Virus record (IMG/VR): IMGVR_UViG_2917802685_000001
Span: 32,001 to 96,000 of that record
Origin: a virus
Lineage: Duplodnaviria; Caudoviricetes
Length of the DNA: 64,000 nt
Direction: 5' to 3' (one strand)
A program made the translations under genes and the position numbers. Below, piece by piece: positions 24,270-42,708 of this stretch. How positions within the stretch are numbered: the stretch's first letter is position 1; the number at the start of each line of letters is the position of its first letter. Under the pieces are notes generated by a model that was not told the DNA's origin, searched no databases, and worked only from the letters and a program-made list of their open reading frames with translations.

Positions 24270-26471
24270 ATGATCAGCAAGAACAACGAGGACACCTCGC
24301 CCCTGGCGAACTTTGATCCCACGGAGATTCACCAGCTGTTCCTGGGATTGGAGGTGCCCGATCCGATTACGTTCGTGGTCTCGCCGAGGTATCTGAACCG
24401 GCCAAACCTCTACCCGCGCCAGGCCACCCTCATGAAGGTGTTCTTCCTGCGCGAGGACCTCTTCACCGACTACGACTACCGGGTCGTCGCCGAGTGGGAC
24501 GAGTCCTACCGCACCGCCAAGTCCTCCAACGAACAGCGGGCCGCGCGCGCCGCTGAACTCGCCGAGACCAGCCCCGAAGCCGCCCTCGAAGCCGAGGTCG
24601 ACGGCATCATGACCGAGGCCCTCGACGCCATCGCCGCCCAGGCCCTGCTGGAGGGCAACGAGGACGCCCCCAAGATGCCCCTGTCCGGCTCCCCGGACCT
24701 CCTGGGCCGCATGCGCGCCTGCAAGGCTCTCGGCTACAGCTGGTTCAAAGAGATCCTCCTGGTCATGGGCCGCCGCGCAGGCAAGGGCCACATCAGCGCC
24801 CTGGCCATGGCCTACGTCCTGTGGTGCTACATGGCCAAGGGCGACCCCCAGGAGTTCTACGGCGTCGACCGCGACAAGAAGCTCGCCGTGCTGATCTTCG
24901 CCGGTAAGCGCGACCAGGCCAAACAGAACCTGTGGCGCGACCTCGTCAACGTCGTCACCGGCGGCCCGTGTTTCGCCCCCTACATCGCCGACAGCCTCGG
25001 CGAGAAGCTCTCCGTCTACGCGCCGAACGACTTCGTCCGCATGGAAGACATGCGCAAGCGCGGCATCAAGACCGCCATGGACATGGCCACCTTCCACATC
25101 CTGCCCAAGGAATCCACCGTCATGGCGGGCCGTGGCCCGGCCTCCATGATCCTCGGCTTCGACGAGATGGCCCACGTCGTCAACAGCGGCGCCAACCGCT
25201 CCGCCGGAGAGGTCTACGACGCCTCCACCCCCTCCCTCGACCAGTTCGGCAGAGACGGCTTCATCGTCGAGCCCAGCTCGCCGTGGGAGATGAGCGGCAA
25301 GTTCTACGACAACTGGCTGCGCGCCACCAGCTACGAGGACGACGGCACCCCCACCTACGCGAACGTCATGATGATCCAGCTCCCCAGCTGGGACGTCTAC
25401 CTCGACTGGCAGATCGCCCACGAACTGCCCCTCTTCCCCGAGGGCTTCACCGGCGACAACGGCGAGTACGCCGACTGCGACCCGCCCGGCTTCAAGCCCC
25501 TCAAGGGCGCCATCCAGAACTTCGACGAAGAGATGCGCAAGCTGGAGAAGGCCGACCCCGACACCTTCGCCGTCGAGCGCCGCGCCCAGTGGGCCACCGT
25601 CCTGGACGCCTACCTCAATCCGGACAAGGTCGAATCCGTCTTCGGCCCCTGGCACGAGCGCCCCGTCGAATACGGCAGCCCGCTCATCCTGCCCACCACC
25701 CAGGGCATCCTCGCCTACACCTACAAGGGCCACGCCGACCCCAGCTCCGTCAACTGCCGCTTCGGCGTCGCCCTCGCCCACACAGAGATCGACGCCGAGG
25801 GCCGCCCCCACGTCGTCTTCGACAAGATCCACTACTTCGATCCGGCCGACTTCCCGAACCACACCATCGACTACGAGGAAGTCGAGGACTGGATCTGGCA
25901 CGACATGATCGTCCCCTTCAGCCCCGACGACTTCACCTTCGACCAGTACCAGTCGGTCGGATCCATCCAGTCACTCGTCAAGCGGACCGCCAAGACGCGC
26001 CTGCCCAAGAAGGTCAACATCTGGGAGCGCACCGCCACCAACCAGATCAACTGGCGCTACGCCGAGACCTTCAAGGCCGCGATCAACATGGGCCTGGTCC
26101 ACGCGCCCGAGCACGAAGAGGGCATGCTGGAGCTGAAGTTCCTCCAGAAGAAGCCCGGCATCAACCGCGTCGATCACCCCACCATCGGTCCCGTCCAGAC
26201 CAAGGACATCGCCGATGCGATCATGATCACAACGTTCGCGCTCATCGGTGACTGGATCGAGGGCTACAAGGAGATGCTCAACGGCGCCAGGCCCGCTGGC
26301 GCCATGGTGGGTGGCCTGCACGGATCCAGCGCCCGCACCCCCGACATGGCCATGCCTGACCAGGACACACAGGCCCGCCTGAACGCCCTGCGCAGCTTCA
26401 CCCGCACCCGTACAGGACGCCAGGGCTGGGATCAAGGCCTCGGCCGCACAAGGTCCGGATATCGCCGCTGA
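24270..26471 (+). CDS. terL: Terminase large subunit
   Basis: MGRRAGKG, QA, GFDEMAH, HADPS, FDQYQS, KDIADA. Confidence 0.9.
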   Translation: MISKNNEDTSPLANFDPTEIHQLFLGLEVPDPITFVVSPRYLNRPNLYPRQATLMKVFFLREDLFTDYDYRVVAEWDESYRTAKSSNEQRAARAAELAETSPEAALEAEVDGIMTEALDAIAAQALLEGNEDAPKMPLSGSPDLLGRMRACKALGYSWFKEILLVMGRRAGKGHISALAMAYVLWCYMAKGDPQEFYGVDRDKKLAVLIFAGKRDQAKQNLWRDLVNVVTGGPCFAPYIADSLGEKLSVYAPNDFVRMEDMRKRGIKTAMDMATFHILPKESTVMAGRGPASMILGFDEMAHVVNSGANRSAGEVYDASTPSLDQFGRDGFIVEPSSPWEMSGKFYDNWLRATSYEDDGTPTYANVMMIQLPSWDVYLDWQIAHELPLFPEGFTGDNGEYADCDPPGFKPLKGAIQNFDEEMRKLEKADPDTFAVERRAQWATVLDAYLNPDKVESVFGPWHERPVEYGSPLILPTTQGILAYTYKGHADPSSVNCRFGVALAHTEIDAEGRPHVVFDKIHYFDPADFPNHTIDYEEVEDWIWHDMIVPFSPDDFTFDQYQSVGSIQSLVKRTAKTRLPKKVNIWERTATNQINWRYAETFKAAINMGLVHAPEHEEGMLELKFLQKKPGINRVDHPTIGPVQTKDIADAIMITTFALIGDWIEGYKEMLNGARPAGAMVGGLHGSSARTPDMAMPDQDTQARLNALRSFTRTRTGRQGWDQGLGRTRSGYRR

Positions 26472-26726: not shown

Positions 26727-26783
26727 TCTCCCATTCCCATGTCCACCAGCTCTTCACCGACGTGAAGGGCTGGAGGTGCAGGG

Positions 26784-29471
26784 ATGACGGACATCAGCGC
26801 GACCAGCTTCTTCCGCCAGGCGGGCGTCGCCGACGGCGGCATCGACTTCGACCACGAAGAGACCGACACCGGCAGCTCGATCTGGCCGACCAGGATCAAG
26901 CTCAAGGCCCTGCACCCCGAGACCGGCGAGGAGATGGGCTTCCTCGACTACCAGGTGCCCCGCCGCAAGACCAACAAGATCACCGTCCATGAGCTGAAGA
27001 CCCACGAGGACTACCAGCGCAAGGGCGTCGGCTCCGCCCTCATGGACGAGATGCAGCGCCGCCACCCCGGCACGCCTGTAGATCACGGCGACCGCACCCC
27101 CGCCGGTAAGGCGTGGTGGAAGGGCTACACCGACGGCAAGAAGGTCACCCGGGGCCGAACCATGGCCACCCGCACGACGGCCGCCGCCCCGGAGACCTTC
27201 GCGCGCGGCGACGGCGAGGATTGGCTGGCGCACCGCCAGCGCGTCCGCCACGGCCTGTCCACGGGCCGCATCTCCTACCCGCAGGCCCGCGAGCACGGCT
27301 ACGACGGCGATGCGCGAGAGGACACCCGCGACAGCTGGACCGGACAGCACACCGAAGGCAAGGGCTGGCAGCCCCTGCCCCACCAGCTCTACCACACCAC
27401 CACCGACGCCGCCGGAGTCGCCGCCCACGGCCTGCGCAGCGGCGGAGAACTCGGTCAGGACAGGGGCCACGGTCTCGGCGGCACCCCCGAGTGGCTGTCC
27501 CTGACCGACCACCACGACAACGCCCACAACATGCTCGATGCGATGCACGAGTACCACGCCCACCTCAACGGCAAGACCAGCTTCCCTGACCTCCACCGAG
27601 CGGCCGAGAGCGGAGAGGGCGCCCAGCAGCCCTTCCACAAGCCCTTCGTGGACGGCATCTCGGAGATGTACAACGAGCACCACCGAGACTCGCTGATGCG
27701 GGGGAAGCGCATCGAGCCCGGCTTCGCCACCTACGACGAGGCCAAGGAGAAGGGCTGGACGCCACACCCGACCCTCCACAAGGACTTCGGCGAGGACAAG
27801 CACGGCCGCCACATCGGCACCGGCTGGGAGCGCGACTCCAACCTCGAAGAGCGCCACGACGAGTACGGAGCCTTCTCCCGCGCCCGCCAGTTCTCCGGCA
27901 ACGGCAAGCCCTCCGTGCTGTTCACCAGCAACGACCGCCGGGCGTTCGCCGACAAGGACCCCAGGAACTTCGCCGTCCTCCACGTCCGCCCCCGCCCCGG
28001 CGGCCACGGCTTCCCCGGCGGCGACAAGCACGAGTGGCGCACCGGCAGCGGCGACGCCGTTGAGGTCCACGGCGAGCCCATCCGCCGTCAGGCCCTACGC
28101 GTCACGGCGGCCGTCCAGGACGGCGACGACATCCCGTCCCGCCTCCTCAACCCCCACGGCCACCACGTCCGCGCCCGGGTCGAGGGCAACACGAACGTTG
28201 AGATGGTCCCGCGCCACGAGGTCGAGCGCTACGCCAGCCAGCCGACCGACGACGCGCACACCAAGGAGGTCGGCACCCACGTCGCCACCAGCGGCGAGAT
28301 GGAGCCCCTCCTCCTGCACTACCACCCCGCCAGCGGTGAGGCCTACCTCGGCGAGGGCAACCACCGCTTGCGCGCCGCCAAGGCCCTGGGTATGGACCAC
28401 GTCCCCCTGCGCGTGAGCCGCTCCAGCTACGGCCTGCCCGGCCCCGGCGTGAAGGTCCCCCAGGACCACCCCGCCATCGCGGCAGGCGGCCACGTCCCGG
28501 CCGACATCTACCCCAGCCACATCGGCCTCACCGCAGTGGACAAGCCCGCCATCCCGGAGGGTGACCTGCGCAGCGCCAGGAACGACTACAACCTCACCGG
28601 CCGCCCCCGCCTGGCGGCAGCCGACACCCCCGTGCCGGACAACACCCAGCCGTACCAGCACGAGCACGACTGGCTTCCCCACGGCCACTTCTTCGGCCCC
28701 GGGAAGAAGGGCCTGGACCCGCGCCTGTTCGACGAGAACGACCGGATGCACCCGATCGTCCGCCAGCACCTGCTGTCTCTGCTCAACGCCTTCTGGACCC
28801 CGAAGTACGGCGACTCCTGGCAGTCCTGGGCCCGCGTCTACCTCACCGGCTCCGAGGCCTCCCACTGGTACGGCAACGGCGACCTCGACGTCCTCATCGG
28901 CATTGACCACGAGGCCCTCAACCACCACGTCGACCACTTCACCGGCGAGCCGGACGACGCGGTCGACGAGCGCCTCACCAACGAGCTGCGCGAGGGCCTC
29001 AACGACGACCACCGGATGTTCCCCGGCCCGGACGGCAAGGACACCGGCCCCTGGGAGTCGACCTTCTACGTCAACCCGGGCTCGTACGACATCCGCGACC
29101 TCAAGCCCTACGCCGCCTACGACATCACCCGCGACGAGTGGGCCGTCAAGCCGGTCGAGGTCCCCGACGACTTCGGGCCCGAGAAGCTCCCCGAGTCCAC
29201 CTGGGACGTCCTCGACGCGCTGCAGAAGCTCATCGGCGCCATCCAGGAGCTGCCCGCCGGAACCCGGGAGCGCGAGGGCGCCGCGCTGTACGATTACCTC
29301 CACGCTGACCGCCACAGCGCTTTCGGCCCCGAGGGATCGGGCCTCTATGACCCTGCCAACGCTGTCTGGAAGGCCCTCGACAAGGCCCCCGGCAAGCCGC
29401 TGCAGCAGCTCATCGACTGGAAACACGCCCACGACGGGACCGCCGCCACGGACCTGGAGACCGCAGCATGA
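26784..29471 (+). CDS. Polyvalent protein 1: GNAT + ART-like + ParB/Srx-like + nucleotidyltransferase
   Basis: YQRKGVGSALM; LYHTT..V..HGL; EGNHRLRAA; LTGS......DLDV. Confidence 0.8.
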   Translation: MTDISATSFFRQAGVADGGIDFDHEETDTGSSIWPTRIKLKALHPETGEEMGFLDYQVPRRKTNKITVHELKTHEDYQRKGVGSALMDEMQRRHPGTPVDHGDRTPAGKAWWKGYTDGKKVTRGRTMATRTTAAAPETFARGDGEDWLAHRQRVRHGLSTGRISYPQAREHGYDGDAREDTRDSWTGQHTEGKGWQPLPHQLYHTTTDAAGVAAHGLRSGGELGQDRGHGLGGTPEWLSLTDHHDNAHNMLDAMHEYHAHLNGKTSFPDLHRAAESGEGAQQPFHKPFVDGISEMYNEHHRDSLMRGKRIEPGFATYDEAKEKGWTPHPTLHKDFGEDKHGRHIGTGWERDSNLEERHDEYGAFSRARQFSGNGKPSVLFTSNDRRAFADKDPRNFAVLHVRPRPGGHGFPGGDKHEWRTGSGDAVEVHGEPIRRQALRVTAAVQDGDDIPSRLLNPHGHHVRARVEGNTNVEMVPRHEVERYASQPTDDAHTKEVGTHVATSGEMEPLLLHYHPASGEAYLGEGNHRLRAAKALGMDHVPLRVSRSSYGLPGPGVKVPQDHPAIAAGGHVPADIYPSHIGLTAVDKPAIPEGDLRSARNDYNLTGRPRLAAADTPVPDNTQPYQHEHDWLPHGHFFGPGKKGLDPRLFDENDRMHPIVRQHLLSLLNAFWTPKYGDSWQSWARVYLTGSEASHWYGNGDLDVLIGIDHEALNHHVDHFTGEPDDAVDERLTNELREGLNDDHRMFPGPDGKDTGPWESTFYVNPGSYDIRDLKPYAAYDITRDEWAVKPVEVPDDFGPEKLPESTWDVLDALQKLIGAIQELPAGTREREGAALYDYLHADRHSAFGPEGSGLYDPANAVWKALDKAPGKPLQQLIDWKHAHDGTAATDLETAA

Positions 29472-31954
29472 CCGAGTTCAACGCCGTCGCCCACTTCCGC
29501 CAGGCTGCCTGGTCCGACGAGGAAGGCCTGTCCGACAAGACCCGGGCCGCCGTCGACCGGGCCGAGGGCGACTGGCACACCCACCGGCAGTACCTCGCCG
29601 AAGACCACATGAACAAGCAACTGGACCCGGAGACCAACCGGCTCGCCCACCAGGGCCACGCCCAGCGCACCGCCAACAAGATCACCGACGCCGAGGGCCT
29701 GCCCCCCGTCAAGGTCCTCGTCCACGACTCACCGAACGTCGCCGGGCGCGGCACAGCCCACGACGGCAGCCCGGTCATCGCGCTCGGCGAGAACACCCTG
29801 AAGCACACCACCCTCATCCACGAGCTGACGCACCACATGCGCCAGCCCCACGAGGACGACCCCGACCACAACGCGGGCGGCTTCTACGGCGACTACATCG
29901 GCATGCTGCAGCGCCACCACCCCGACCCCGACGCGTACGTGCACATGATGGACGCCAACAAGCTCGCCGTGGCCCACATGCGCGCCCACCCCGGCAACTT
30001 CCCACCCCGGACCGCGAGTGCGGCCTACGATGCCCCAGAAGGAGGCAGCCATGGATCCGAACGAGCAGGACGAGACGATGGACCCCGAGGTCGAAGCGGA
30101 GATCCTGCAGAGGCACGACACTCCCGGGGAGCGCAGCACGGTCAGCGTGAACGAGCTGCGGCACCGGGCCGCCGTGTCCGCGCAGCAGCAGGCGTAGAGC
30201 GCCACCCCGAGCTGCAGGGCGACCTCGACCGCCTCGGCGGAGGCGCCCGCCACGTCCAGGAGACCATCGACGCCCTGCACCACGGCGGCTCCGGCGGCGC
30301 CGTCACCTACCCGCTCTCGCACCCGCTGGAGGGCTGGCACGCAGCCCTCACCAGCGGCGGCCACCAGGTCGTGCACCGGCACGACGGCGAAACCCTCCAC
30401 GTCGGCTACGCCGGACACAACATCGCCGACGCCGAGCAGCGCCTGGGCGCCAGCAACGGAAACGGCTCCCTGCCGGTGGAGTTCCACAAGGGCGCCGAGA
30501 AAGACTTCGACGGCCTCCACCCCGAGGTCCAGGAGAAGGCCCTCAACACCATCGACCGCCTCGCACGCGGCGAGCAGCACAAGTACGACCACGCCCTCAA
30601 CGGCGGACAATGGGAGAGCGGCGGCTGGCGATCGGCCCGCGCCGACTTCCTGCACCGCGTCACCCACCGCTTCGAGGACGCCGACGGCAACCCCACTCCT
30701 CCCGAGCGCGCGGCCCGGCTGTTCGTCGGCCACATTGGCCCGCACAACTACGGCGACGCCGCCAAGCGCCTCTCCAGCCTGACCGGCTTCTTCCGGCAGG
30801 CCAGCCTGCCGCAGGAGTGGTACCACGGCTCCGGGGCCGTCTTCGACCGCTTCGATCCGAGCAAGGACAAGACCGTCCAGGACGAGAGCGCCGAGCCCAA
30901 GCACTGGAACAGCCACCTCGGCTCCCACTTCTCCAGCGACCACCGCGTCGCCCAGGAGTTCGCCCAGCGCCAGGGCGGCGGCCACGTCTACCACGTCCAG
31001 CTCAACCTGCAGAACCCCAAGCACTACGAGTCCGAGCACGACCTGGACAAGGAAGCTGTCCTGTGGGCTCACCACAACGGCCACGACATGGGGCCGTCGG
31101 TGAGCAAACCGGCCTACCGCGAGCACATCGAGCCGGACGAGTGGCAGTTCTTCCCCAAGTACGACGACCACGGCGACCCCCGGCCGAACACCCAAGAGAT
31201 CGCCCACGGCTTCCGTGACCACCTCAAGGCCCAGGGGCACGACGGCATCACCTACGGCAACGAGTTCGAGGGCGCCCACAACGGCTTCCACGCCGGAGAA
31301 CGGCACCTCAGCGCTATCGCCTTCCACCCTGACCAGGTCACCATCACGCAGCGGCACAGAGGCAACGAGCCCCACACCGCCGCCCTGCAACTGACCGAGG
31401 CCGAAAACCGTCTGCTGCAGCGTCAGGCGGCGGCCGTCGAGAACGGCAGTGGCGTGATGGTTGCGTTCGTCCCGCCGCACGAGGTGGCAGAGCAACTCGC
31501 CCTGCACGGCGGCCAATTGGTCGATGACCTGCACATCACCCTGGCGTACCTGGGCAATGTGGCCGACTACACCAAAGAGCAGCTGACACTGCTGCCGCAA
31601 TTGGTTTCGGCCTGGGCAATGAGGCAAAAGGCAGTTACGATCCACATCGGAGGCGTTGGAACGTTCAACAACGCCTACAAAGACCAGCACGTCCTGTGGG
31701 CGCACCCCGACATACCCGGTGGGGTGCAGATGCACGTCAGCCTGGCTGACTACCTGGAACGGTACGGGTACCGTCTTCCCAGTGAGCACGGCTGGACGGC
31801 CCATATGACGCTGCAATACGTCGACCGGCACAAGCGGTTCATGCCGCAGCTGCCAGAAGTCGGCTGGGAGGCGACCGAGGTGGTCACCTTTGTCGGAGCG
31901 GCTCGCCACGCCGCGCGCCTCGGCCTCCGTCCCAGCACACCCACCACGCTCTAG
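29468..31954 (+). CDS. Polyvalent protein 2: zincin + 2 RelE-like + ART + 2H phosphoesterase (Acb1-like)
   Basis: HELTH; VEFHKGAEKDF..L...IG.H; WYHGS..FDRFD..G.HF..NP..GHDG; HITL/HMTL. Confidence 0.82.
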   Translation: MTEFNAVAHFRQAAWSDEEGLSDKTRAAVDRAEGDWHTHRQYLAEDHMNKQLDPETNRLAHQGHAQRTANKITDAEGLPPVKVLVHDSPNVAGRGTAHDGSPVIALGENTLKHTTLIHELTHHMRQPHEDDPDHNAGGFYGDYIGMLQRHHPDPDAYVHMMDANKLAVAHMRAHPGNFPPRTASAAYDAPEGGSHGSERAGRDDGPRGRSGDPAEARHSRGAQHGQRERAAAPGRRVRAAAGVERHPELQGDLDRLGGGARHVQETIDALHHGGSGGAVTYPLSHPLEGWHAALTSGGHQVVHRHDGETLHVGYAGHNIADAEQRLGASNGNGSLPVEFHKGAEKDFDGLHPEVQEKALNTIDRLARGEQHKYDHALNGGQWESGGWRSARADFLHRVTHRFEDADGNPTPPERAARLFVGHIGPHNYGDAAKRLSSLTGFFRQASLPQEWYHGSGAVFDRFDPSKDKTVQDESAEPKHWNSHLGSHFSSDHRVAQEFAQRQGGGHVYHVQLNLQNPKHYESEHDLDKEAVLWAHHNGHDMGPSVSKPAYREHIEPDEWQFFPKYDDHGDPRPNTQEIAHGFRDHLKAQGHDGITYGNEFEGAHNGFHAGERHLSAIAFHPDQVTITQRHRGNEPHTAALQLTEAENRLLQRQAAAVENGSGVMVAFVPPHEVAEQLALHGGQLVDDLHITLAYLGNVADYTKEQLTLLPQLVSAWAMRQKAVTIHIGGVGTFNNAYKDQHVLWAHPDIPGGVQMHVSLADYLERYGYRLPSEHGWTAHMTLQYVDRHKRFMPQLPEVGWEATEVVTFVGAARHAARLGLRPSTPTTL
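30051..30197 (+). CDS. Overprinted 48-aa acidic antitoxin-like peptide nested out of frame in polyvalent protein 2
   Basis: AGAAGGAGG RBS 5 nt before ATG; G/C-ending codons in this frame while host frame turns A/T-ending; stop overlaps start of first RelE-like domain. Confidence 0.7.
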   Translation: MDPNEQDETMDPEVEAEILQRHDTPGERSTVSVNELRHRAAVSAQQQA

Positions 31955-33415: not shown

Positions 33416-33527
33416 ACGAAACAGCGCCCCCGGCAAGGTCCCTGTTCCGGACCCCATCGGAGGCGCTGTAGTGACACGACCGTCGCCCCGGATTTCCCGC
33501 CTAAAGGAACACAGAGCACGAGGGAAC

Positions 33528-34556
33528 ATGTCTGCCAACCAGCCTACCGTGACCAAAGCCGTGGTGTCCTACACCGGGACCACCTGGAGAACTCGCGCCG
33601 CCCAGGCCGACTGGGACAGGCTCATCACCGACGGAATGATCTACCTCATCGCCATCGGGGGTTTCTACGTCGGCTATCAGACCCTCTACGCCATGGCGCT
33701 CAAGGTCGGCATGCCCGCCGACCAGGCCGCCGTCGTCTCCGCCATCGCCGACATGGCGATCCTTGCCTACTCCCGCAAGGCCGTCCAGGAGATCAAGGAA
33801 GGCCGCTCCGCCTGGGGCATCCGGACCATCGTCGCCGCCGCCTCCCTGGCCACCTTCTCCCTGCAGCTGCGCGCCGCCTGGCCCCACCCCACCAGCCTCG
33901 GCTTCCACGGCCTCGCCCCGGCCGCCTGGATCCTCGGCCACGAGATGATGCTGCGGGGTCGCCTGCGCACCGCCAAGGCCGCCCGCCGCGCCGCCCAGAT
34001 TGCCGCCGGACTCCGTCCCGCCCCGCTCCCGGCCATCCGCCCGGCCTGGTGGCTGCTGGCCCCCTTCAGCACCTTCACCGTCTGGCGCCTGGTGAAGCTG
34101 TGGGAGAAGTCCCAGGACTACGTCATCCGCATCGAGGCCGCCCGCCGCAAGGACAAGGGCAAGAACGTCCCCCGCGCCTGGGAGGGCTACCTGCTCACCA
34201 CCCAGACCCCGGCCGCCGCGTCCGCGCTGGTGCTCCACGAGATCTGCACTGCCTTCTTCACCCCCGAGGACCTCTTCCCCGAGCCGGGATGGGTCCCTCC
34301 GGTCACGTCCACCCTGTACCGGGAGTCCGACCCCGCCGAGAAGGTCCCGTCCTCCGAGGTCGACGCCCTCCTGCGCATGCTCCCGGAAGCCCCGGCCAAG
34401 GGCCGCCCCGAGGACAAGGCGATCGAGTACATCCGCCGCGTCGAGAACCTCGCCGCGCAGCGCGACATCAAGATCACCGGCGTCTTCCTCGCCGAACTCC
34501 TGCAGGTCGACGGCACCCGCATCTCCAAGCTCCGCAAGATCATGACCACCCCCTGA
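33528..34556 (+). CDS. DUF2637-family membrane protein (plasmid/AICE spread-like)
   Basis: Four TM segments (..GF..GY..L...A...G......D..IL), WWLLAPFST..VWR motif, C-terminal HTH-like. Confidence 0.65.
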   Translation: MSANQPTVTKAVVSYTGTTWRTRAAQADWDRLITDGMIYLIAIGGFYVGYQTLYAMALKVGMPADQAAVVSAIADMAILAYSRKAVQEIKEGRSAWGIRTIVAAASLATFSLQLRAAWPHPTSLGFHGLAPAAWILGHEMMLRGRLRTAKAARRAAQIAAGLRPAPLPAIRPAWWLLAPFSTFTVWRLVKLWEKSQDYVIRIEAARRKDKGKNVPRAWEGYLLTTQTPAAASALVLHEICTAFFTPEDLFPEPGWVPPVTSTLYRESDPAEKVPSSEVDALLRMLPEAPAKGRPEDKAIEYIRRVENLAAQRDIKITGVFLAELLQVDGTRISKLRKIMTTP

Positions 34557-35028: not shown

Positions 35029-35877
35029 TCAGGCCCGCTCCAGTTCGCCGAATGGGCTGGGGGAGAGGGCGACCATGTCCGGCTTGATGCCGGGCGGCAG
35101 TTCGGGCGCGTCCGGGTCCGGGCACGCGAGCGCGACCAGCACCGTGGCGTGCAGGATGGTGCGCGGCGTGGTGTTGGAGTCGAGCCGGTTGCCTCCCTGG
35201 CCGCCCCGGCTGCTCACGCGGCTCACCAGCAGCGGCCCCCGGTCCTCGAACGACTGCGGCGGCCGGTGGGTGCGCACCGGCAGATACGCCTTCACGGCTG
35301 CCCGCACCTCGTCGGGGAACGCCAGCGGCCGGGTGCCGCCACCCTTCTGCCAGACGGTCGCGACCAGGCGGTGCTGCTCGAAGGCGAGGTCCTGCACGGT
35401 GAGTTCGATGATCTGCCGGGACCGCAGTCCGGCCAGCATGAGGTACATCAGCAACCGGTCGCGCTCGGGGGTCTTGCCCTCCAGCCGGTCGGCGGCCCAC
35501 CGGATCAGCTCCATCTGCCCCGGCGCGAGGCGCTCGGTGCGGGGGGCGTTCCACGCGCCGGTGCCCATCTTGGGGTGCACCGGTGTGGCCACGGCGTGCC
35601 CGAACTGGATGGCGTAGGCGTAGAACGCGCCGACGGCGGAGACCCGCAGGGCCCGGGTGCGGACCTTGCCGCCCTTCATGTCGAGCCAGGTGACGACGTG
35701 GGAGGGCTGGGCGCGCCAGGCACCGATGTGCACGGTGTCCTCGATGAAGTCGAGCCAGTTCGTGACGTGTTCGGCGTACCGCTCGGTGCTGGTGCCCTGC
35801 AGGAGGCGTCCCTGCTTGCCCCGCCGGTCGGGGTTGGTCTCGTCGAGCCAGGTGGTGAGCACGGTGCGGGCGTCCAT
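35029..35877 (-). CDS. Tyrosine-recombinase-like protein lacking HxxR and catalytic Tyr
   Basis: SAM-like N-domain, ERDRLL..L..AGLRSRQ, QKGG; ends IKPDMVALS.. where HxxR/Y expected. Confidence 0.75.
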   Translation of the reverse strand: MDARTVLTTWLDETNPDRRGKQGRLLQGTSTERYAEHVTNWLDFIEDTVHIGAWRAQPSHVVTWLDMKGGKVRTRALRVSAVGAFYAYAIQFGHAVATPVHPKMGTGAWNAPRTERLAPGQMELIRWAADRLEGKTPERDRLLMYLMLAGLRSRQIIELTVQDLAFEQHRLVATVWQKGGGTRPLAFPDEVRAAVKAYLPVRTHRPPQSFEDRGPLLVSRVSSRGGQGGNRLDSNTTPRTILHATVLVALACPDPDAPELPPGIKPDMVALSPSPFGELERA

Positions 35878-35899
35878 GGCGCACCATCCTGGCACGTGC

Positions 35900-36229
35900 C
35901 TACGACAGCGGGCTGGTGAGTGCGGTGCGGGCCTTGCGGATGGCGGTGGTGGGGTCGGGCCAGCAGAAGAGCCGGTCGACGGTGAGGGCGCCGATTGCGT
36001 CCTGCCAGCCCTCCAGGGTCAGGGCCAGCCCGCCTCCGCGTCCCATCGTGGACACGGCCCATCCCTCCCCGTGGAGCAGGGACTGACGGCGGACGATCAG
36101 GGTCTCTCCTCCGGCGTCGGGGAGGAGGACGCGGTACTCGGTGGCGTCGGCGGCGAGGGCCTGGGCTTCCTGCAGTTCGTGCTGCAGGCGGGCGATCTCG
36201 GCGTGGAGGTCGGCGGGGGAGTCGGGCAT
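35900..36229 (-). CDS. Hypothetical protein
   Basis: Codon bias, co-oriented with recombinase-like gene. Confidence 0.65.
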   Translation of the reverse strand: MPDSPADLHAEIARLQHELQEAQALAADATEYRVLLPDAGGETLIVRRQSLLHGEGWAVSTMGRGGGLALTLEGWQDAIGALTVDRLFCWPDPTTAIRKARTALTSPLS

Positions 36230-36266
36230 GTCGCTCACTCTACGGTCGCGGCGCTCCAGACGGGCA

Positions 36267-36390
36267 TCACTTTATACAAAAGCCCAGCCCTCACCCCGGG
36301 AGCGGGAAGGGCTGGCGTAGTACCGAAAGTGCGGGGCGGCGCCGCGCGCGTGCGGGTTGGAGGGTGGTGTCCGGCTTTTGTATAAAGTGA
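36267..36390. repeat. Perfect 18-bp inverted repeat TCACTTTATACAAAAGCC, 88 bp apart
   Basis: 36267-36284 and 36373-36390 are exact reverse complements. Confidence 0.9.
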
Positions 36391-36537
36391 CCACATCTAC
36401 GTGGAAACGCCGGATGACCTGGGGTGCTGCAGGAGGGTTCGGCGGCTGGCGGGCCGCGTGGCGGATACCCCGATCCTGCCACGGCCGCCACCGCGAAAGC
36501 CAGCAGCGCCGCACCCCGTTTCGCTACGCTCCCCCAC

Positions 36538-36948
36538 ATGCGAAGCACCGAGCCTGACCAGCCCCTGGACCCCGACGACCTCGGCCCCGAACTGCAGGAA
36601 GCCCTGCGCAGGATGAGCGCGCGCGGCGACGGCCCCGTGATCGACCTCGGCACCGGCGCCATCGTCGCCAAGGACGGCCACCTCGTCGGCGACCTCGTCG
36701 CCTGCCGCGAATGCGCCCGAGCCGTCGCCCTCGGCTGGTGGGGCAGCACCGCCCGGCACTGCAGCGACCCGGACTCCCCGGTGTGCCAACTGTGCAGTGA
36801 AGGGGAGGCGACCCTGACGGCCGAGGCATGGTTCGCACTGACACTGCAGCTGACCATCCAGAACACCGCGAGCGGCACCCGGCGCACCTGGCGAGACGAC
36901 GCCATCAAGGGCCTCGGCGCCATCGCCATGCCCGAGCCGCCGGGGTGA
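36538..36948 (+). CDS. Cys-containing hypothetical protein
   Basis: CREC..HC..CQLC; codon bias; start uncertain. Confidence 0.65.
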   Translation: MRSTEPDQPLDPDDLGPELQEALRRMSARGDGPVIDLGTGAIVAKDGHLVGDLVACRECARAVALGWWGSTARHCSDPDSPVCQLCSEGEATLTAEAWFALTLQLTIQNTASGTRRTWRDDAIKGLGAIAMPEPPG

Positions 36949-36976
36949 CACGCAACGATTGGTGCGATAGAGTGGG
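36945..36976 (+). promoter_or_regulatory. Conserved promoter/operator copy 2
   Basis: GTGACA c GCAAC-GATT-GGTGC ga TAGAGT GGG. Confidence 0.75.
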
Positions 36977-36979
36977 CGC

Positions 36980-37312
36980 ATGAAGCCGTTGAGCGAGCCC
37001 GACTACCAGCTGTCCATGCGCACCAGCCCCCGCGCCCGAGCCGACGAGCGCAACCAGGGCTTGCGCTCCCTGCTCGTGCACCGCCTGCGCGACGCCGCCA
37101 AGGCCGTCGTCCGGCTGCCGAACAGGACCAGCATCGCCACCGCCCACTCCGGGCGCTACACCGTCCACTGCGAGACCGACAACATCTGGTTCGGCCTGCC
37201 CGACTGGGGCGAGGAGATCGAGTGCCCCGGCGAGTGCGGCCAGATCTTCGCCCTGGAGTTCGCCGTCTTCTCCGCCGTCCCCGCCCCGGCCGCCGGAGCC
37301 GCCGAGGGCTGA
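36980..37312 (+). CDS. Hypothetical Zn-ribbon protein, probably leaderless
   Basis: ATG 7 nt after -10 box; IECPGECG. Confidence 0.6.
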   Translation: MKPLSEPDYQLSMRTSPRARADERNQGLRSLLVHRLRDAAKAVVRLPNRTSIATAHSGRYTVHCETDNIWFGLPDWGEEIECPGECGQIFALEFAVFSAVPAPAAGAAEG

Positions 37313-37475
37313 CATGACGGTCCCGCCGGGCAACTCCGGGGCGGGGGAGGGGAGAAGTCGGCGGGACCTGGGAAGCGTGTACCCGGGTCCCGCCTCTTCA
37401 TGCACACGCGAAAGACCCCGCCCATGCGCCACGGGGATGAGACGCAGGAGCGGGGCCGTATCGGGGCGCTGCGGG

Positions 37476-37856
37476 CTAGCGCCGCGCGGTGGACCGGGCA
37501 GCCCAGGGGAAGCCCTTGGAGCCCTTCAGGCGTGCCTCCATCAGGCGGTCCCAGTAGCCGTGGGGCCTGCCCAGGCGGTCGGCCAGGTCCTCCAGCTGGT
37601 TGGCCTCGATGTAGCGCTTGCACCGGGCGCACGCGTACCACTGCTGGGCGTGGTGGGGGACCTCGATCTCGATGCCGTCCGCCGGGTTCACCCGGGGGAA
37701 CGTGACGTGGCCAACCGGGTAGGCCCAGACCATCTCATCGTCGCTGCACCAGTTGCAGCCCCTGGGAGGCCAGCTCATCGGGAACTTCGCGATCAGAGGG
37801 TGGTACTTACGGGCGGGGGACGGGTCCATGGCCCGACGATACCGGCTGAGAGTCAT
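37476..37856 (-). CDS. CxxC..CxxC hypothetical protein downstream of ATP-grasp gene
   Basis: CNWC...WYACARC. Confidence 0.65.
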   Translation of the reverse strand: MTLSRYRRAMDPSPARKYHPLIAKFPMSWPPRGCNWCSDDEMVWAYPVGHVTFPRVNPADGIEIEVPHHAQQWYACARCKRYIEANQLEDLADRLGRPHGYWDRLMEARLKGSKGFPWAARSTARR

Positions 37857-37861
37857 CTGCT

Positions 37862-38812
37862 CTACGCCCCCTCGGTGGTGGTCGGCGGGTTGGTCAGCCA
37901 GTCCGCGATGGCCTGGGAGATCGGCGCGCCGGTGGTGATCTCCACGAAGCCGAACTGGCCGTTGGCGTTGGCCTCCAGGAACCAGAAGGCGCCGTCGGCG
38001 TCGATGGCGAAGTCGACGGCCGCGTACACCAGCCCGGCCGCCGCCATGTAGCGCAGCGCGGCTTTGCGCACCTCGTCCGGGATCGGCTGGATCTTCCACG
38101 TGCACTGCTCGACCGGCAGGAACCGCCAGTCGAGCGTGCGGTCCTGGGAGGAGATGAAGCAGGGGAACATCGTGTCGCCCACGACCGTGAGCCGGACGTC
38201 GGCGACCTTGTCGACCTTGTCCTGCAGGCACGTGGGGGACGCGGCCACGCCGGAGAAGTCGGCGTCCCGGGGGACCTCGCACGTCGACATCGTCAGCGGC
38301 GGGTCTTCGGGGTGGCGGCCGGAGATGGACTTCACGATGACCGGCCCGGCGCCGGAGGCGAACCGCTCGGCCGCGACCGGGTCGGTCGTGATGAGCGTGC
38401 GGGGAGTGCGGAAGCCCGCCTCCTCGGCGGCGCGGAGCTGCCAGACCTTGTAGTGGGAGCGGTCGATGGCTTCCGGGTGGTTCATCCACGGGAGGTCCAG
38501 GGCGCGGAGCGTGCCGTAGAAGGCGCGCTCGCTCTCCAGGGAGACCCAGTCCTTCTGGATGGTCGCGAGGTGGCCGGGGGGGCCCGGACGGCGGCGCCAT
38601 ACCGAGCGGATGCTGGACAGCTTGACGCGGCGGTGCTTGGTGGCGATGTACCCGGCCACCCCACCGCCCGCATCGCTGCGGGCGGTGAGGTCCACACGGC
38701 CAGGGAAGTGTTCCGGATCGACACGCATCACCGGAGTACCTTGCGCGGTGAGGCGGGTGATCACCATGTCGGCGGTGACGTCTTCCTCGGACGTGAGGAC
38801 GAGGACGGTCAT
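37862..38812 (-). CDS. tgmB: ATP-grasp RiPP (graspetide) maturase
   Basis: VLVLT..EDVTAD, SVWRRRP, WMNHP, KVWQL, PRTLIT, DVRLTVVG, LDWR, FLEANANGQF. Confidence 0.92.
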   Translation of the reverse strand: MTVLVLTSEEDVTADMVITRLTAQGTPVMRVDPEHFPGRVDLTARSDAGGGVAGYIATKHRRVKLSSIRSVWRRRPGPPGHLATIQKDWVSLESERAFYGTLRALDLPWMNHPEAIDRSHYKVWQLRAAEEAGFRTPRTLITTDPVAAERFASGAGPVIVKSISGRHPEDPPLTMSTCEVPRDADFSGVAASPTCLQDKVDKVADVRLTVVGDTMFPCFISSQDRTLDWRFLPVEQCTWKIQPIPDEVRKAALRYMAAAGLVYAAVDFAIDADGAFWFLEANANGQFGFVEITTGAPISQAIADWLTNPPTTTEGA

Positions 38813-38813
38813 G

Positions 38814-39032
38814 TCAGTCGTCGTCGTTGTGGGTCGCGCTGCCCGCCGTGCTGGTGGTCGTGGAAGTGCCCATCAGCAGCGGGAGGTTGTCGGCGGCCCG
38901 GGAGCCGTCCGTGAGCACGTTGACCTGCTGCTTGCGGTCGTAGGAGAAGGGGGCGACAGGGTGCGCCTGGCGGGGCTGGGCGAAGCCCAGCGCGAAGGGG
39001 GCGCTGCGAGGTGCCTGGAGCTGCGTGGTCAC
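38814..39032 (-). CDS. tgmA: Graspetide precursor peptide (72 aa)
   Basis: PFAL leader, YDxxxQVNV, core TSTTTSTAGSATHNDDD; GGAAGGA RBS. Confidence 0.88.
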   Translation of the reverse strand: MTTQLQAPRSAPFALGFAQPRQAHPVAPFSYDRKQQVNVLTDGSRAADNLPLLMGTSTTTSTAGSATHNDDD

Positions 39033-39213
39033 GCGAGATCCTTCCGTCGTGCCGAGGGCAGGCATGGCCGCACTCGGCCCTGTGAGTAGTCGGTTGACTA
39101 CCGGCGGACATGACTGTAGTGACATTTTCTCTCTTTGACTACGGGGCAGGGGAGTTGGGCTGCTGTCCGCCGGTCCCGTTTCGGCCATAGGGGGTGGAGA
39201 GAGGAGCCCCACC

Positions 39214-39462
39214 ATGCCGCCACGCGCCAAGAAGGCCGTCCGTACCGAGATACGCCTCCCCGTCTTTCCTGAGCGGACCTGCCGCGAGCCGGTCGCCGGA
39301 GAGTTCGCGATCCACTCCTGCGAGGTCGTCGAGGGCCACCTGGGCCCGCACGCCTCGCAGTCCGTGGCGAAGTCGATCGAGCTGCGGCTGACGTGGGAGA
39401 ACAGGAACCTCGACAAGCTGGAGCCGACCGACGCGTCCGACCCCTTCGCGAGCACCGTGTGA
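39214..39462 (+). CDS. Small Cys/His protein
   Basis: GAGGAG RBS; C..C....GHLGPH. Confidence 0.65.
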   Translation: MPPRAKKAVRTEIRLPVFPERTCREPVAGEFAIHSCEVVEGHLGPHASQSVAKSIELRLTWENRNLDKLEPTDASDPFASTV

Positions 39463-39656
39463 GCGGCTCTGGAGCGTTCCCGCCGCCCCCGGCGGCCGAT
39501 CCGTCCACCGCCCTCCACGACAGCGCCGTGGCGGCCCTGCAGCGGCTGCACAACTATCTTGCTGTGAACCGGCCGAGGGCGCTTGCGGCGGCCGACGGCG
39601 GCGACGCGGTCGACGTGGCGCTGCAGCTGCTGGACCGACTGCCGCCGGAGCGCTGA
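39459..39656 (+). CDS. Small hypothetical protein
   Basis: GTGA overlap. Confidence 0.5.
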   Translation: MSGSGAFPPPPAADPSTALHDSAVAALQRLHNYLAVNRPRALAAADGGDAVDVALQLLDRLPPER

Positions 39657-39839
39657 GATTTCGGCATATGCCAACTCAGAGAATTCTCGCGTGACTTGAG
39701 AAAATGTCACTCGATCGGGTGCATACTGATCCCACTTCGGCCTCACGGTCGGAGAGCCACACCCCCGAACAGCAGGTGCGGTGCCTGCGGCCTCCGCCGC
39801 CGTGTCCGCTGTAGTGGCTGTCGTCGTCATGTGACACGT

Positions 39840-39873
39840 AGGGCCCCTCTCCACCATCCGGGAGAGGGGCCCT
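39840..39873. terminator. Terminator hairpin
   Basis: 13-bp perfect stem after 39889 stop. Confidence 0.75.
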
Positions 39874-39888
39874 GCTTGCTGCCTGCCG

Positions 39889-40599
39889 TCAGGAGCTGTG
39901 CGCCCGGCGCGCCAGCCGCGCCAGCGGGTGTTCCTTCGAGGCCCTCTTCCACTCAGGGAAGTGCTCCCCGAACACCTGGTCGACCTTCGAACTCTTCCCC
40001 AGGGTGATCTTCACGGCGTAGCCGCCCCTGGAGATCTCGAAGGGCCGCGACAGCTTGGCCAGGTAGTCCACCCGCGTACCGGCCGGGGCCTGGGCATCGA
40101 AGTACGCCGGGAGCACGAAGTTCGACACCGACACCGTCTTACCGCCGACGTGCACCACGTACGCGGTGTCCTCGACCGCGTCGCACGCCTCGTAGGCGTA
40201 CAGGCCGTCGCCGCCGTCGGACGCCCACAGCTGGACGTGCGGGTCGACGAACGTCTCCAGGACCTCGTGGCTCAGGACGGCCGACACGGACAGCTCGCCG
40301 TTCAGGACGGTGCCGCCGTTGTCGAGGACCGGCGAGGCGAAGACCTTGCCGTAGACCGTGCCGTCGGCCTCCTCGGAGTGGTAGCCGAGGGCGTCGGCCT
40401 GGTCGGCGTTGTCGTAGAGGCCGATCGCGTACGACCCGGCGGGGACGGCCGCGCCCTTGGGCAGGAGCACGACGCTGGCCGTCTTGGAGCCCCACGCCGG
40501 GGCGACGTCGTAGCGGACCTGATGGGCCACAGCGCGCACCATCAGGGCGGCGTCGGCGTCGGTCACACGGGTGGAGTGGTTCTGGACGACCACGAACAC
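39889..40599 (-). CDS. Zincin-like metalloprotein
   Basis: LGYH, VLSHEVLETFVDP, YEACD; AGGAGG RBS. Confidence 0.65.
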   Translation of the reverse strand: MFVVVQNHSTRVTDADAALMVRAVAHQVRYDVAPAWGSKTASVVLLPKGAAVPAGSYAIGLYDNADQADALGYHSEEADGTVYGKVFASPVLDNGGTVLNGELSVSAVLSHEVLETFVDPHVQLWASDGGDGLYAYEACDAVEDTAYVVHVGGKTVSVSNFVLPAYFDAQAPAGTRVDYLAKLSRPFEISRGGYAVKITLGKSSKVDQVFGEHFPEWKRASKEHPLARLARRAHSS

Positions 40600-40702
40600 A
40601 AGAAGCCTCCTGCAGAGAGGGGACGGGCCCTGGGAGCAGGCCCTTCATCCCCTGGGGGCCTCTGCAGGAGGCGACACAGGTAAGAGAACGATGAAAACGC
40701 GG

Positions 40703-41203
40703 TCAGCCCATCTCGCGGGCGGCCTGGCGCTCCCTCTCCATCTCGGCGGAGATCATGCGGTACTCCTTGCGCAGGGCCTGCAACAGCGGGCCCGCCTCCG
40801 GCTGGACGGGGACGCGGACGCGGCGCATCTCCTCGCGGGCCACCTCCGCCGACGCCTCCCACTCCCGGACCGCTACGCGCATGGCGGCCAGCACGAACTT
40901 GTTGAAGATCTTCAGGTCTGGGTTCGCCATGAGGAACTTCTGCCAGTGCGCCCCCAGTGCGGGGTCGGCATAGATCGTCTTCTTCGGGAACTGGGGGATC
41001 GCGCCTTCGGCGTACAGCAGGTCCATGGGCGGCATCTGGAAGTCCAGGTCCATGTCCAGCTGCAGCCCGCCCTCGTCGGCCGGGGGATTGGCCTGCGGCG
41101 CGGGCTCCGGCTGGGGCTCCGGCTCCGGTACGGCCTTCAGCGCCGCCTCCTTCGCCCGCTGCTTCGCCAGATACGCCTGCTGCCGGGCCTTGCTGCTTCC
41201 CAC
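40703..41203 (-). CDS. Putative ribbon-helix-helix DNA-binding protein with disordered N-terminus
   Basis: PEPEPQPEP linker then KKTIY-helix-helix pattern; GAGAGGG RBS. Confidence 0.5.
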   Translation of the reverse strand: MGSSKARQQAYLAKQRAKEAALKAVPEPEPQPEPAPQANPPADEGGLQLDMDLDFQMPPMDLLYAEGAIPQFPKKTIYADPALGAHWQKFLMANPDLKIFNKFVLAAMRVAVREWEASAEVAREEMRRVRVPVQPEAGPLLQALRKEYRMISAEMERERQAAREMG

Positions 41204-41245
41204 TGGTCGCCCTCTCGATCGTGGTGGACGACCAGTGTATCCCGT

Positions 41246-41277
41246 TTCAACGGTTCAACGGATTTCCGTTTTTCGGT
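41246..41277 (-). repeat. 8-bp array (minus strand ACCGAAAA ACGGAAAT CCGTTGAA CCGTTGAA)
   Basis: Upstream of RHH-like gene; matches 23695-23726. Confidence 0.6.
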
Positions 41278-41278
41278 G

Positions 41279-42283: not shown

Positions 42284-42708
42284 CGTGCCGTGCCGTAGCG
42301 CTGCTGGATCTCGGCATGGCACGGGATGCAGGTGCTGTGTCCAAACCCGTGGGCCAGGATGGCGAACTCCTCACGGTCGAACCAGGTGAAGCAGGAGCCG
42401 CACAGCTCCTGCCGTACGGGGTCGGCGGGCGGCTCGCAGTGCAGGCGGAAGCCGGTCCGGCGCTTCTTGCCCGCCTTCGTGGTGTCGGTCGGGTGCAGGT
42501 TGCGCAGCGCGATCCACCGGTAGCCGCCCATCCGTTGGCCGCCGGTGGGATCCCAGACCCTGACCCTGTCGCCGTCCACCCCGTCCACGACGAACGGCTT
42601 GCTGCGCGACTCCCCCCAGAGGTATTCCGTCTTGCACGGTGCGTACGTCTGCCACCGCTTCACCTCGAAGGGCGGCTGTGCGTCGGTGGTTTCGGTGCTG
42701 GCGGTCAC
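42280..42708 (-). CDS. Hypothetical protein
   Basis: GAGGGGGA RBS, GTG 42708; C-terminal CGSC..CIPC. Confidence 0.65.
   Translation of the reverse strand: MTASTETTDAQPPFEVKRWQTYAPCKTEYLWGESRSKPFVVDGVDGDRVRVWDPTGGQRMGGYRWIALRNLHPTDTTKAGKKRRTGFRLHCEPPADPVRQELCGSCFTWFDREEFAILAHGFGHSTCIPCHAEIQQRYGTAR

Follow-up and report, generated by a model that had tools for sequence, protein, structure and literature searches.

Polyvalent proteins, chains of fused effector domains encoded by mobile elements, are a catalogued yet almost untested class, and their cutting and its sites have been an open prediction since 2017. In that year Iyer, Burroughs, Anand, de Souza and Aravind (PMC5512222) predicted that they are delivered with DNA and proteolytically processed; the searched text of that paper ascribes the processing to MPTase (zincin) or assemblin-like domains, gives no cleavage motif, and does not contain the word "linker". 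Here we describe two adjacent genes, P0001 and P0002, in a 64,000-nucleotide stretch of DNA (the window) that comprises bases 32001-96000 of the 154,158-bp virus record IMGVR_UViG_2917802685_000001, which is identical to the circular plasmid pRLB1-9.1 of Streptomyces sp. RLB1-9 (NZ_CP041653.1). Nearly every joint between the modules of the two proteins is marked by [Arg/Lys]-[Gln/Thr]-Ala plus a small residue, which is a real and specific junction signal, and the best explanation of the pair is that a Bxz1/Myrna-like Streptomyces phage-plasmid makes them as polyvalent cargo proteins, expressed late and with coupled translation. Coordinates below are window positions unless marked as genome positions.

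Like the described polyvalent proteins, P0001 and P0002 carry many unrelated conflict-type domains per chain (ART-PolyVal, ParB-like, putative zincin, GNAT, nucleotidyltransferase and 2H) on a phage or plasmid. Members of the class have two to fifteen effector domains, and with four in P0001, five in P0002, a mobile-element location and an ART-PolyVal (ADP-ribosyltransferase) signature, the pair belongs to it by domain content and host element. What is new here is the precise tripeptide at nearly every joint, a tag that is reused internally, the exchange of cassettes at the motif, the two constant C-terminal modules (nucleotidyltransferase and 2H) and a small overprinted gene inside a spacer.

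Other phages load and process proteins in the head. The internal proteins of phage T4 (IPI-III and Alt) have a capsid-targeting leader of 10-19 residues and a site for the gp21 prohead protease, and are injected with the DNA against host defences. P0001 and P0002 resemble them in having a short N-terminal leader followed by a putative protease site. However, the T4 sites are (L/I)-x-Glu and lie in single-domain proteins, whereas our polyproteins have no sequence similarity to these, their leaders end in F-R-Q-A, their joints are [RK]-[QT]-A, and no Glu stands at the last position. In phage phiKZ, where gp175 is the corresponding protease, many head-internal proteins are likewise cut at a short consensus with several fragments per gene product, but that consensus is (S/A/G)-x-Glu, the cargo is mostly structural inner-body protein rather than enzyme chains, and the lineage is a different one. 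The prohead proteases of tailed phages have the fold of the herpesvirus assemblins, enzymes that cut (V/L/I)-X-Ala↓Ser (arrows here and below mark a known or putative boundary). The Ala at P1, the small P1′ residue and the tolerance of a polar P2 recall the motif described here; P3 is aliphatic in assemblin sites and basic here, and the element's own candidate protease is predicted to be assemblin-like from a PHROG match. Finally, MuF-toxin and "capsid maturation protease and MuF-like fusion" proteins of Streptomyces and Arthrobacter phages carry effectors that include the same 2H domain (30-35% identity), but there the effectors are fused, within the head operon, to a domain with a structural or assembly role, whereas our chains have no structural domain and adjoin the terminase gene.

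The two open reading frames (ORFs), P0001 at 26784-29471 (895 aa) and P0002 at 29468-31954 (828 aa), lie directly after the gene for the large terminase subunit (TerL), where the original prediction had placed the pair, and the P0002 start overlaps the P0001 stop through the sequence ATGA (29468). PGAP labels one of the two a hypothetical protein and the other a "2'-5' RNA ligase family protein". The G+C content of third codon positions (GC3) backs the annotated frames everywhere but one stretch (~30020-30200, see below), and the order TerL, P0001, P0002 is kept in relatives L009-L014. Database searches gave ~95 homologues, which range from 475 to 1552 aa and in many cases lie on contigs of 150-157 kb; they have their modules in many orders and represent a family of related phage-plasmids. 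AlphaFold models were built from the homologue alignments, with pLDDT as their confidence measure.

The original prediction listed ten similar motifs at nearly every module boundary. All ten stand where it put them, in pLDDT <50 stretches at module edges between folded domains: FFRQAG (residues 9-14) and joints 1 to 3 of Table 1 in P0001, and HFRQAA (9-14), RTASAA (181-186), RVRAAA (236-241), FFRQAS (441-446), HTAAL (636-640) and QRQAAA (651-656) in P0002. The account has to be amended at two places, since the joint between the two RelE-like modules is a Gly/Ser linker without the motif, and RTASAA and RVRAAA flank a passenger-frame spacer, which is no ordinary linker. BLAST breakpoints among the 95 homologues cluster at the listed positions of P0001 and P0002. 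At joint 1 the homologues have GRTMA and then KTAAA, RTTAAG or similar; at joint 2, EPIRRQA closes module 2 regardless of its successor and RRTAAV[QE] opens module 3 regardless of its predecessor; and at joint 3, in ~40 homologues, KTASAD, RRTASAD, RRQA (IRRQA-TA), ARQASVD, IRQAFE (IIRQAFE) and others stand before TPVPDN, whatever the upstream module. LLQRQAAAV lies ahead of the 2H module in most homologues. Some single joints carry tandem motifs (RRQA-LRVTAA, KTA-x-RRTAAV).

Within the homologue set, 231 of the 280 internal [RKH][QT]A tripeptides (82%) fall in junction zones that cover 27% of the residues, as compared with 29% for the reversed motif; the homologues are related, so these counts are not independent and p-values are inflated, though the effect is large. 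A motif no commoner at boundaries than in the background, which the original prediction had named as the result that would count against it, is thus not what we find. With a small residue added the localization is sharper still, 108 of 115 copies of [RK][QT]A[AS] being in junction zones. The automatic breakpoint zones are noisy: the strict motif is present in 216 of 561 of them (87 for random zones), and many are ends of high-scoring segment pairs inside domains or contain the variants R-x-T-A-A and R-x-x-A-A-A. When the positions are scanned singly, solely Q (80%) and T (83%) are junction-localized in the middle, A (82%) in the last position, along with an M that comes from the one conserved GRTMA tail, and K (89%), R (85%) and H (67%) in the first, while V, S, E, G, L and the reversed and single-substitution controls give 14-35%, near background. 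Because this three-position specificity is sharp and the controls are at background, a mere Ala/Arg-rich linker composition is ruled out. The motif copies also differ in their codons (CGG CAG GCC, CGC ACG GCG, AAG ACC and so on), so DNA microhomology is a poor explanation. Comparison with L009 and L012 shows how exact the exchange can be, as the zincin cassette is present or absent precisely between FRQA↓A and RTASA↓A.

Both proteins begin, as had been predicted, with a short leader that ends in FRQA (residues 1-13 of each). It has the pattern M-T-x-x-x-A-x-x-[FH]-F-R-Q-A, and most full-length homologues have the same one. Nine leader residues recur inside longer chains at module starts (P0006 at residue 222, P0007 at 484, P0009 at 222, P0017 at 185, P0024 at 337, P0025 at 352 and P0031 at 619); the internal copy at residue 222 of P0006, GGHQAVAHFRQAAWSDEE, equals the N-terminus of P0002. 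The ART-PolyVal module is preceded by an internal leader copy in P0002 and directly by the N-terminal leader in P0023 and P0025. FRQA occurs four times in 42,369 aa, three of them in P0001 and P0002, the sole real genes of the element to have it. The fourth (MTNFRQA at 22731) is an artefact of an off-frame extension; the real start of that gene is the ATG at 22818, with the ribosome binding site (RBS) GAGGAG, and PGAP agrees.

The stretch with discordant GC3 lies in P0002 between RTA↓SAA (FPPRTA↓S) and RRVRAAA↓G, where at ~30020-30200 GC3 is 0.35-0.55 in the P0002 frame versus 0.90-0.97 in the +1 frame. The +1 frame contains an ORF of 48 codons, and the case for a small gene is made by GC3, by its own RBS and ATG, and by its conservation: it is kept in L009, L012 and L013, each time with a Shine-Dalgarno sequence and ATG, at lengths of 41-56 aa. 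Over the small ORF, the substitutions that separate L012 from the window fall 13/11/9 by codon position and do not discriminate the frames. The P0002 spacer is the shadow frame of this embedded gene, a point that the original prediction missed. The product of the spacer has no secondary structure (pLDDT ~27), and its homologues are rich in R, G, P and A and carry indels; it must be translated, because module 6 downstream has no start codon of its own. A search for shorter forms found solely gene calls that start inside module 6 and no stand-alone tagged modules. In L009 and L012, which have no clean zincin cassette, the second polyprotein consists of the leader MTEFNAVAHFRG, joined straight to "AYDA...", then the spacer and the RelE modules. 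The end of the small ORF coincides with the start of the first RelE-like module, which is the usual antitoxin-toxin order; its product is a candidate antitoxin that would probably neutralize the RelE modules in the producing cell. This arrangement recalls RelBE and YefM-YoeB, where a small upstream ORF likewise ends at a RelE/YoeB-fold protein, and the second RelE-like copy of P0002 keeps the C-terminal His-x-Tyr; it differs in that the toxins here are internal modules of a polyprotein, and in that the small ORF is overprinted, 41-56 aa long and without a match to any antitoxin family (a Pfam search with the 48-aa product gave no family match).

The original prediction recognized nine domains, and seven of these have fold, Pfam or motif support; its first ART-like domain and its zincin are weaker. 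Confident models cover residues 20-110, 135-435 and 640-885 of P0001 and 241-330, 335-435 and 660-820 of P0002, with 520-595 partly so. The 2H domain at the end of P0002 is unambiguous: it matches PF13563 (E 2e-10), LigT in Foldseek (E 1e-8) and CPDase/LigT with a VIA Z of 17.5, and its HIT (689-691) and HMT (779-781) motifs are invariant in 29 sequences; weaker fold matches are to phage Acb1 and viral 2',5'-phosphodiesterases. The ART-PolyVal module matches PF18760 over residues 448-624 (E 1.4e-9, 39.2 bits against a cut-off of 31.2). Both RelE-like copies superimpose on known toxins with a root-mean-square deviation (rmsd) of 2.2-2.7 over 77-84 residues, as expected of the RelE fold. The first has VIA Z scores of 10.2 to YafQ (9lew_B, model residues 241-323) and 10.1 to YoeB (7bwf_A, 238-320), and the second has scores of 10.2-10.4 to RelK, YoeB and ParE-type toxins with whole chains covered, Foldseek TMt values of 0.70-0.73, and nearly invariant R397, H400, R401, H426 and Y428. 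Module 5, at the start of P0002, has the sequence LIHELTHH at 115-122 (HELTH at 118-122), and this hhHEhxHH motif recurs in many homologous polyproteins; the model, of pLDDT <60, has strands (82-107) followed by a helix (108-123), and there is no Pfam match. The conserved motif in this poorly modelled module is the sole basis on which we call it a putative zincin, a weaker assignment.

In P0001 the GNAT module falls below the cut-off for Pfam Acetyltransf_7/1, which its homologues pass, with PF00583. Its residues 17-128 match many GNATs (VIA Z 8-9.4), and the acetyl-CoA motif (Q/R)-x-x-G-x-(G/A) characteristic of the family is present as QRKGVGS (78-84). The identification of module 2 as ART-like is plausible but not secure, since its model has a single match, to the ADP-ribose complex 9ld3_A (VIA Z 9.3, rmsd 2.5, 86 of ~300 residues), together with weak Atlas leads to RNA 2'-phosphotransferase (Tpt1) and DUF4433 (DarT) by structure and to Arr-ms (Arr) by features, at TM scores of 0.29-0.31 by query length. 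Module 3 is poorly modelled; as an isolated segment it matches Pfam ParB_N (PF02195) at E 0.005 (17 bits, cut-off 26), its GNHRLRAA box (525-532) has the expected form G-x-[HR]-R-x-x-A, and its homologues carry PF02195, one being named ParB/Srx by NCBI. The nucleotidyltransferase module, which is C-terminal in most homologues and so the constant end of gene 1, resembles phage clusters with NTP_transf_2 in Atlas (features 0.95, structure TM 0.65-0.83); the motif of Pol-beta-type enzymes, hG[GS]-x9-13-Dh[DE]h, is present, G689/S690 and D700-L-D702 being invariant or nearly so, and weak Foldseek matches are to CdnE and CCA-adding enzyme. Almost every first polyprotein closes with the conserved tail of this module, DWKHAHDG-x-AATD-x-E-[TN]-A-A, which the second gene directly overlaps with its start. 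Pfam searches with isolated segments of modules 2, 4, 5, 6 and 7 at E up to 10 gave nothing, and a PHROGs search with P0001 gave no match.

Table 1. Features of the TerL-P0001-P0002 region (window positions; residues are those of the protein named)
Feature	Residues	Position	Strand	Basis or remark
Large terminase subunit (TerL)		24270..26471	+	733-aa ORF; phrog_2 E 1e-11
Late-type upstream motif TGTCC-N-GAAGGGCTGG		26740..26773	+	10 nt ahead of P0001 start codon
P0001 leader, MTDISATSFFRQA	1-13	26784..26822	+	pLDDT <50, short predicted helix 6-14
Module 1, GNAT acetyltransferase (P0001)	~14-124	26823..27155	+	Fold, motif, Pfam in homologues
Joint 1, RTMATRTTAAA (P0001)	125-135	27156..27188	+	pLDDT <50 over 118-132; BLAST breakpoints 125-145
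Module 2, ART-superfamily-like, plausible (P0001)	136-433	27189..28082	+	pLDDT 85-96; one fold match
Joint 2, RRQALRVTAAV, two tandem motifs (P0001)	434-444	28083..28115	+	pLDDT <50 from 437
Module 3, ParB/Srx-like (P0001)	~445-608	28116..28607	+	Pfam below cut-off, box motif, homologues
Joint 3, RLAAAD (P0001)	609-614	28608..28625	+	pLDDT <50 over 536-622
Module 4, Pol-beta-type nucleotidyltransferase (P0001)	615-895 and stop	28626..29471	+	pLDDT ~90
P0002 leader, MTEFNAVAHFRQA	1-13	29468..29506	+	Start overlaps P0001 stop
Module 5, putative HExxH zincin-like cassette (P0002)	14-183	29507..30016	+	Motif; ends FPPRTA
Passenger-frame spacer (P0002)	184-241	30017..30190	+	Between the RTASAA and RVRAAA motifs
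Embedded 48-aa gene, +1 frame		30051..30197	+	RBS AGAAGGAGG at 30037-30045
Module 6, RelE/YafQ/YoeB-like, first copy (P0002)	~242-330	30191..30457	+	Fold
Module 7, RelE/YoeB-like, second copy (P0002)	335-435	30470..30772	+	Fold
Joint SSLTGFFRQAS, internal leader-motif copy (P0002)	436-446	30773..30805	+	BLAST breakpoints 435-447
Module 8, ART-PolyVal ADP-ribosyltransferase (P0002)	447-630	30806..31357	+	Pfam PF18760
Joint ...EPHTAALQLTEAENRLLQRQAAA (P0002)	631-656	31358..31435	+	pLDDT <50 over 595-657
Module 9, 2H phosphoesterase (P0002)	657-828 and stop	31436..31954	+	Constant C-terminal module of gene 2

The plasmid pRLB1-9.1 is a 154-kb phage-plasmid related to the Cluster C (Bxz1/Myrna-like) mycobacteriophages. 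It has structural genes for a portal, a 1197-aa protein with a head-maturation-protease region, an HK97-fold capsid protein, baseplate and tail, and also codes for DnaB, primase, Pol III alpha, RecA and integrases. The capsid protein shares 59% identity with its counterparts in Cluster C mycobacteriophages (the Myrna and Bxz1 group), Rhodococcus phage E3 and Gordonia phage Skog, and TerL is 29-30% identical, over ~90% of its length, to proteins annotated as terminases in Cluster C mycobacteriophages and Gordonia phages. No polyvalent genes were found in the terminase neighbourhood of the Cluster C mycobacteriophages, and the publication on strain RLB1-9 does not describe the plasmid as a phage.

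The bipartite sequence upstream of P0001 looks like a late-gene control element. The pattern TGT[CGT][CG]-N16-24-AAGG[GA][GC]TG[AG] has 10 forward matches in the 154-kb element versus 0.11 in shuffles. In the form TGT[CG][CG]-N16-24-CAAGGGGTGA it stands 10-18 nt before baseplate, tail, terminase and polyvalent genes, counted to their start codons, with the copies ahead of the baseplate wedge, minor tail and TerL genes at 13-18 nt; the other genome positions are 10839, 14079, 19153, 39519, 56221, 151466 and 152872. The shared motif suggests that P0001 is co-regulated with these genes and expressed late. The composition of the pair is unusual as well: none of their 1723 residues is Cys (1.0% in the proteome, 0.40% in the whole homologue set), and His makes up 6.9-9.1% of them versus 2.6% of the proteome. 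Together with the late-type upstream motif, the absence of Cys lends indirect support to the predicted transfer of the proteins into the recipient cell along with the DNA.

The element-wide motif search that the original prediction proposed gives the outcome it expected. P0001 and P0002 together contain 7 copies of [RK][QT]A where 1.7 are expected (z 4.3, or 6.4 with a small residue after it), and the head module has 19 where 11.2 are expected (z 2.6, up to 2.8), while there is no enrichment in tail (z -0.5), replication (z 0.3) or accessory genes (z -0.9). Several head proteins have the motif at places that could plausibly be processing sites. Across ~67 related loci, the N-terminus of the capsid protein is extended by a variable stretch of 13-30 residues that ends in HVRTA, GRVA(A/S) or GGVTA directly ahead of an invariant [KR]KSDDYV. 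A scaffold-like protein upstream of the capsid gene (genome 143095-144000; L006:7095-8000) has [KRH]-[TQK]-A-D-[IL] at residue 66, and in relatives this reads AKTAD, RRQAD, LKQAD, MHQAD or LHTAD, varying within these classes alone; in one relative the site is tandem-duplicated (AKTAtvKTADIA). The portal has GRRKTA↓AAG at residue 49. The protease-fusion protein has an RQA at residue 670; this copy is probably there by chance, as it is unconserved and lies inside DUF7178.

The likeliest course of events, we suggest, is that the P0001 and P0002 chains would be made along with the virion proteins and enter the procapsid, where a phage protease would split them at the joints and behind the tag to give eight or nine individual enzymes. 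The putative prohead protease domain with which the 1197-aa head protein begins is the best candidate for the cutter, the alternative being the built-in zincin. The enzymes released would be an acetyltransferase, two of ADP-ribosyltransferase type, a ParB-like protein, a nucleotidyltransferase, a metalloprotease, two RelE-type mRNA nucleases and a 2H phosphodiesterase, and they would enter the next host with the DNA, where they would act on its nucleic acids, proteins and immune signals by modifying or degrading them. Cutting of the joints would simply discard the spacer. The earlier interpretation of the pair as head-packaged, cleaved polyproteins is partly supported, and whether the chains are head-loaded and then cut by a phage protease is in our judgement finely balanced. 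A fuller and more tentative version, which we would put forward with some doubt, is a plug-and-play capsid cargo in which a 13-residue entry tag and the [RK]-[QT]-Ala cut signal allow cassettes to be swapped between phage-plasmids at the cut-site alanine, the head protease frees eight or nine effectors per chain pair, and the discarded spacer overprints an antidote to the chain's own RelE toxins.

A number of observations weigh against head loading and cutting. The two genes are 60 kb from the head module, and FRQA itself is in no head protein of the element. TerL, which the proposed mechanism would leave unprocessed, is the single protein most enriched for the motif, with 5 copies where shuffles give 0.6-0.7; these lie at residues 50, 81, 267, 572 and 587 and are all conserved, but the whole protein is 74-97% identical among relatives, so that this conservation has little weight. 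Many relatives have R-V-A at the putative capsid site, yet the polyproteins show no junction enrichment of [RKH]VA (22%), and where the capsid site differs (L013/L031) the leaders stay FFRQA, with no co-variation. The prohead protease region of the 1197-aa protein is assigned from a single PHROG match (E 3e-23); a PDB sequence search with it found nothing, and a Pfam search with the head-module proteins found DUF7178 alone. Literature searches gave no proteomic or biochemical evidence that the proteins of this element or of a relative are packaged or cleaved; we found no mature N-termini or virion proteomes for Bxz1/Myrna-type phages, nor N-termini or cleavage data in papers on the Myrna capsid. 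To these must be added the relatedness of the homologues behind the junction counts.

Some of the same facts would suit polyvalent proteins that stay whole, with the joints and the FFRQA tag serving as a conserved linker, or as an element to which a packaging or chaperone partner docks, or being simply a linker form that survives repeated shuffling of cassettes. According to PMC5512222, N4 virion RNA polymerase, ArdC and TraC1 are known to travel uncut. The RelE1-RelE2 joint lacks the motif, TerL is enriched in it although cutting there is unlikely, and the predicted short helix of the leader would suit a binding element. A passive linker, however, leaves the three-position specificity and the background level of the reversed motif unexplained, along with the internal copies kept of the N-terminal tag and the tandem motifs at single joints; the differing codons speak against microhomology as the cause, and a 58-residue shadow-frame spacer is more easily tolerated in a functional chain if it is removed. 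We consider uncut chains rather unlikely. Cutting by the chains' own HExxH zincin, in the head or after injection and with no part for the prohead protease, has a precedent in the MPTase self-processing proposed for P1 DdrB (PMC5512222), and a zincin-like cassette with hhHEhxHH recurs in many of the homologous polyproteins. Yet in several elements, among them P0023+P0060, P0025+P0069 and the L009/L012 forms, neither recovered protein has a zincin, while leader and joints are kept, and because some pairs show none, obligatory self-processing is disfavoured. The motif is also enriched in head-module proteins, and the zincin fold is itself putative, so that this explanation is in our view distinctly unlikely.

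The pair might, lastly, be no virion cargo at all but cytoplasmic conflict or maintenance proteins of the plasmid state (toxin-antitoxin or abortive infection), their motif being read by a host protease or having no function. The circular plasmid with integrases, a nearby DUF2637 gene, RelE-like toxins with a small ORF upstream and the distance of the genes from the head module are all compatible with this. Such proteins would not be expected to share a late-type upstream motif with baseplate, tail and TerL genes or to keep their position directly after TerL; nor do the ART-PolyVal and 2H domains in head-module fusion proteins of other actinophages, the absence of Cys from both proteins, and a motif enriched in head proteins and not in the plasmid/accessory region favour it, and we regard it as very unlikely.

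The family gives a precise and falsifiable cut rule, backed by ~95 natural variants of module shuffling. If head loading and cutting are true, the pair shows a temperate actinophage delivering a changeable set of anti-defence and host-takeover enzymes, the tag and linker could be used to load foreign proteins into capsids, and another gene would be overprinted inside a discarded spacer.

A few further features of the element and its relatives may be recorded. Myrna, which can be grown on M. smegmatis, has two large proteins (L008 1252-8390), gp96 (1155 aa) and gp97 (1211 aa), with 5 and 7 [RKH][QT]A motifs, respectively, and no Pfam domains; gp97 is annotated as a tape measure and is placed like the protease-fusion protein. 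In the window, the DUF2637 protein is encoded at 33471-34556, two annotated genes beyond the polyvalent pair; proteins of this family are often met in conjugative elements and phages of actinomycetes. Tyrosine recombinase genes at 35029-35895 and 41279-42322 flank a gene for a MvdD/RimK-type ATP-grasp protein at 37862-38812, and this region (35029-42322, minus strand) is possibly a microviridin-like peptide cluster carried by the phage-plasmid. The 1394-aa minor tail protein (genome 14127-18311; L002) has an N-terminal poly-gamma-glutamate hydrolase domain (Pfam E 5e-59) and is possibly a capsule- or wall-degrading tail enzyme.

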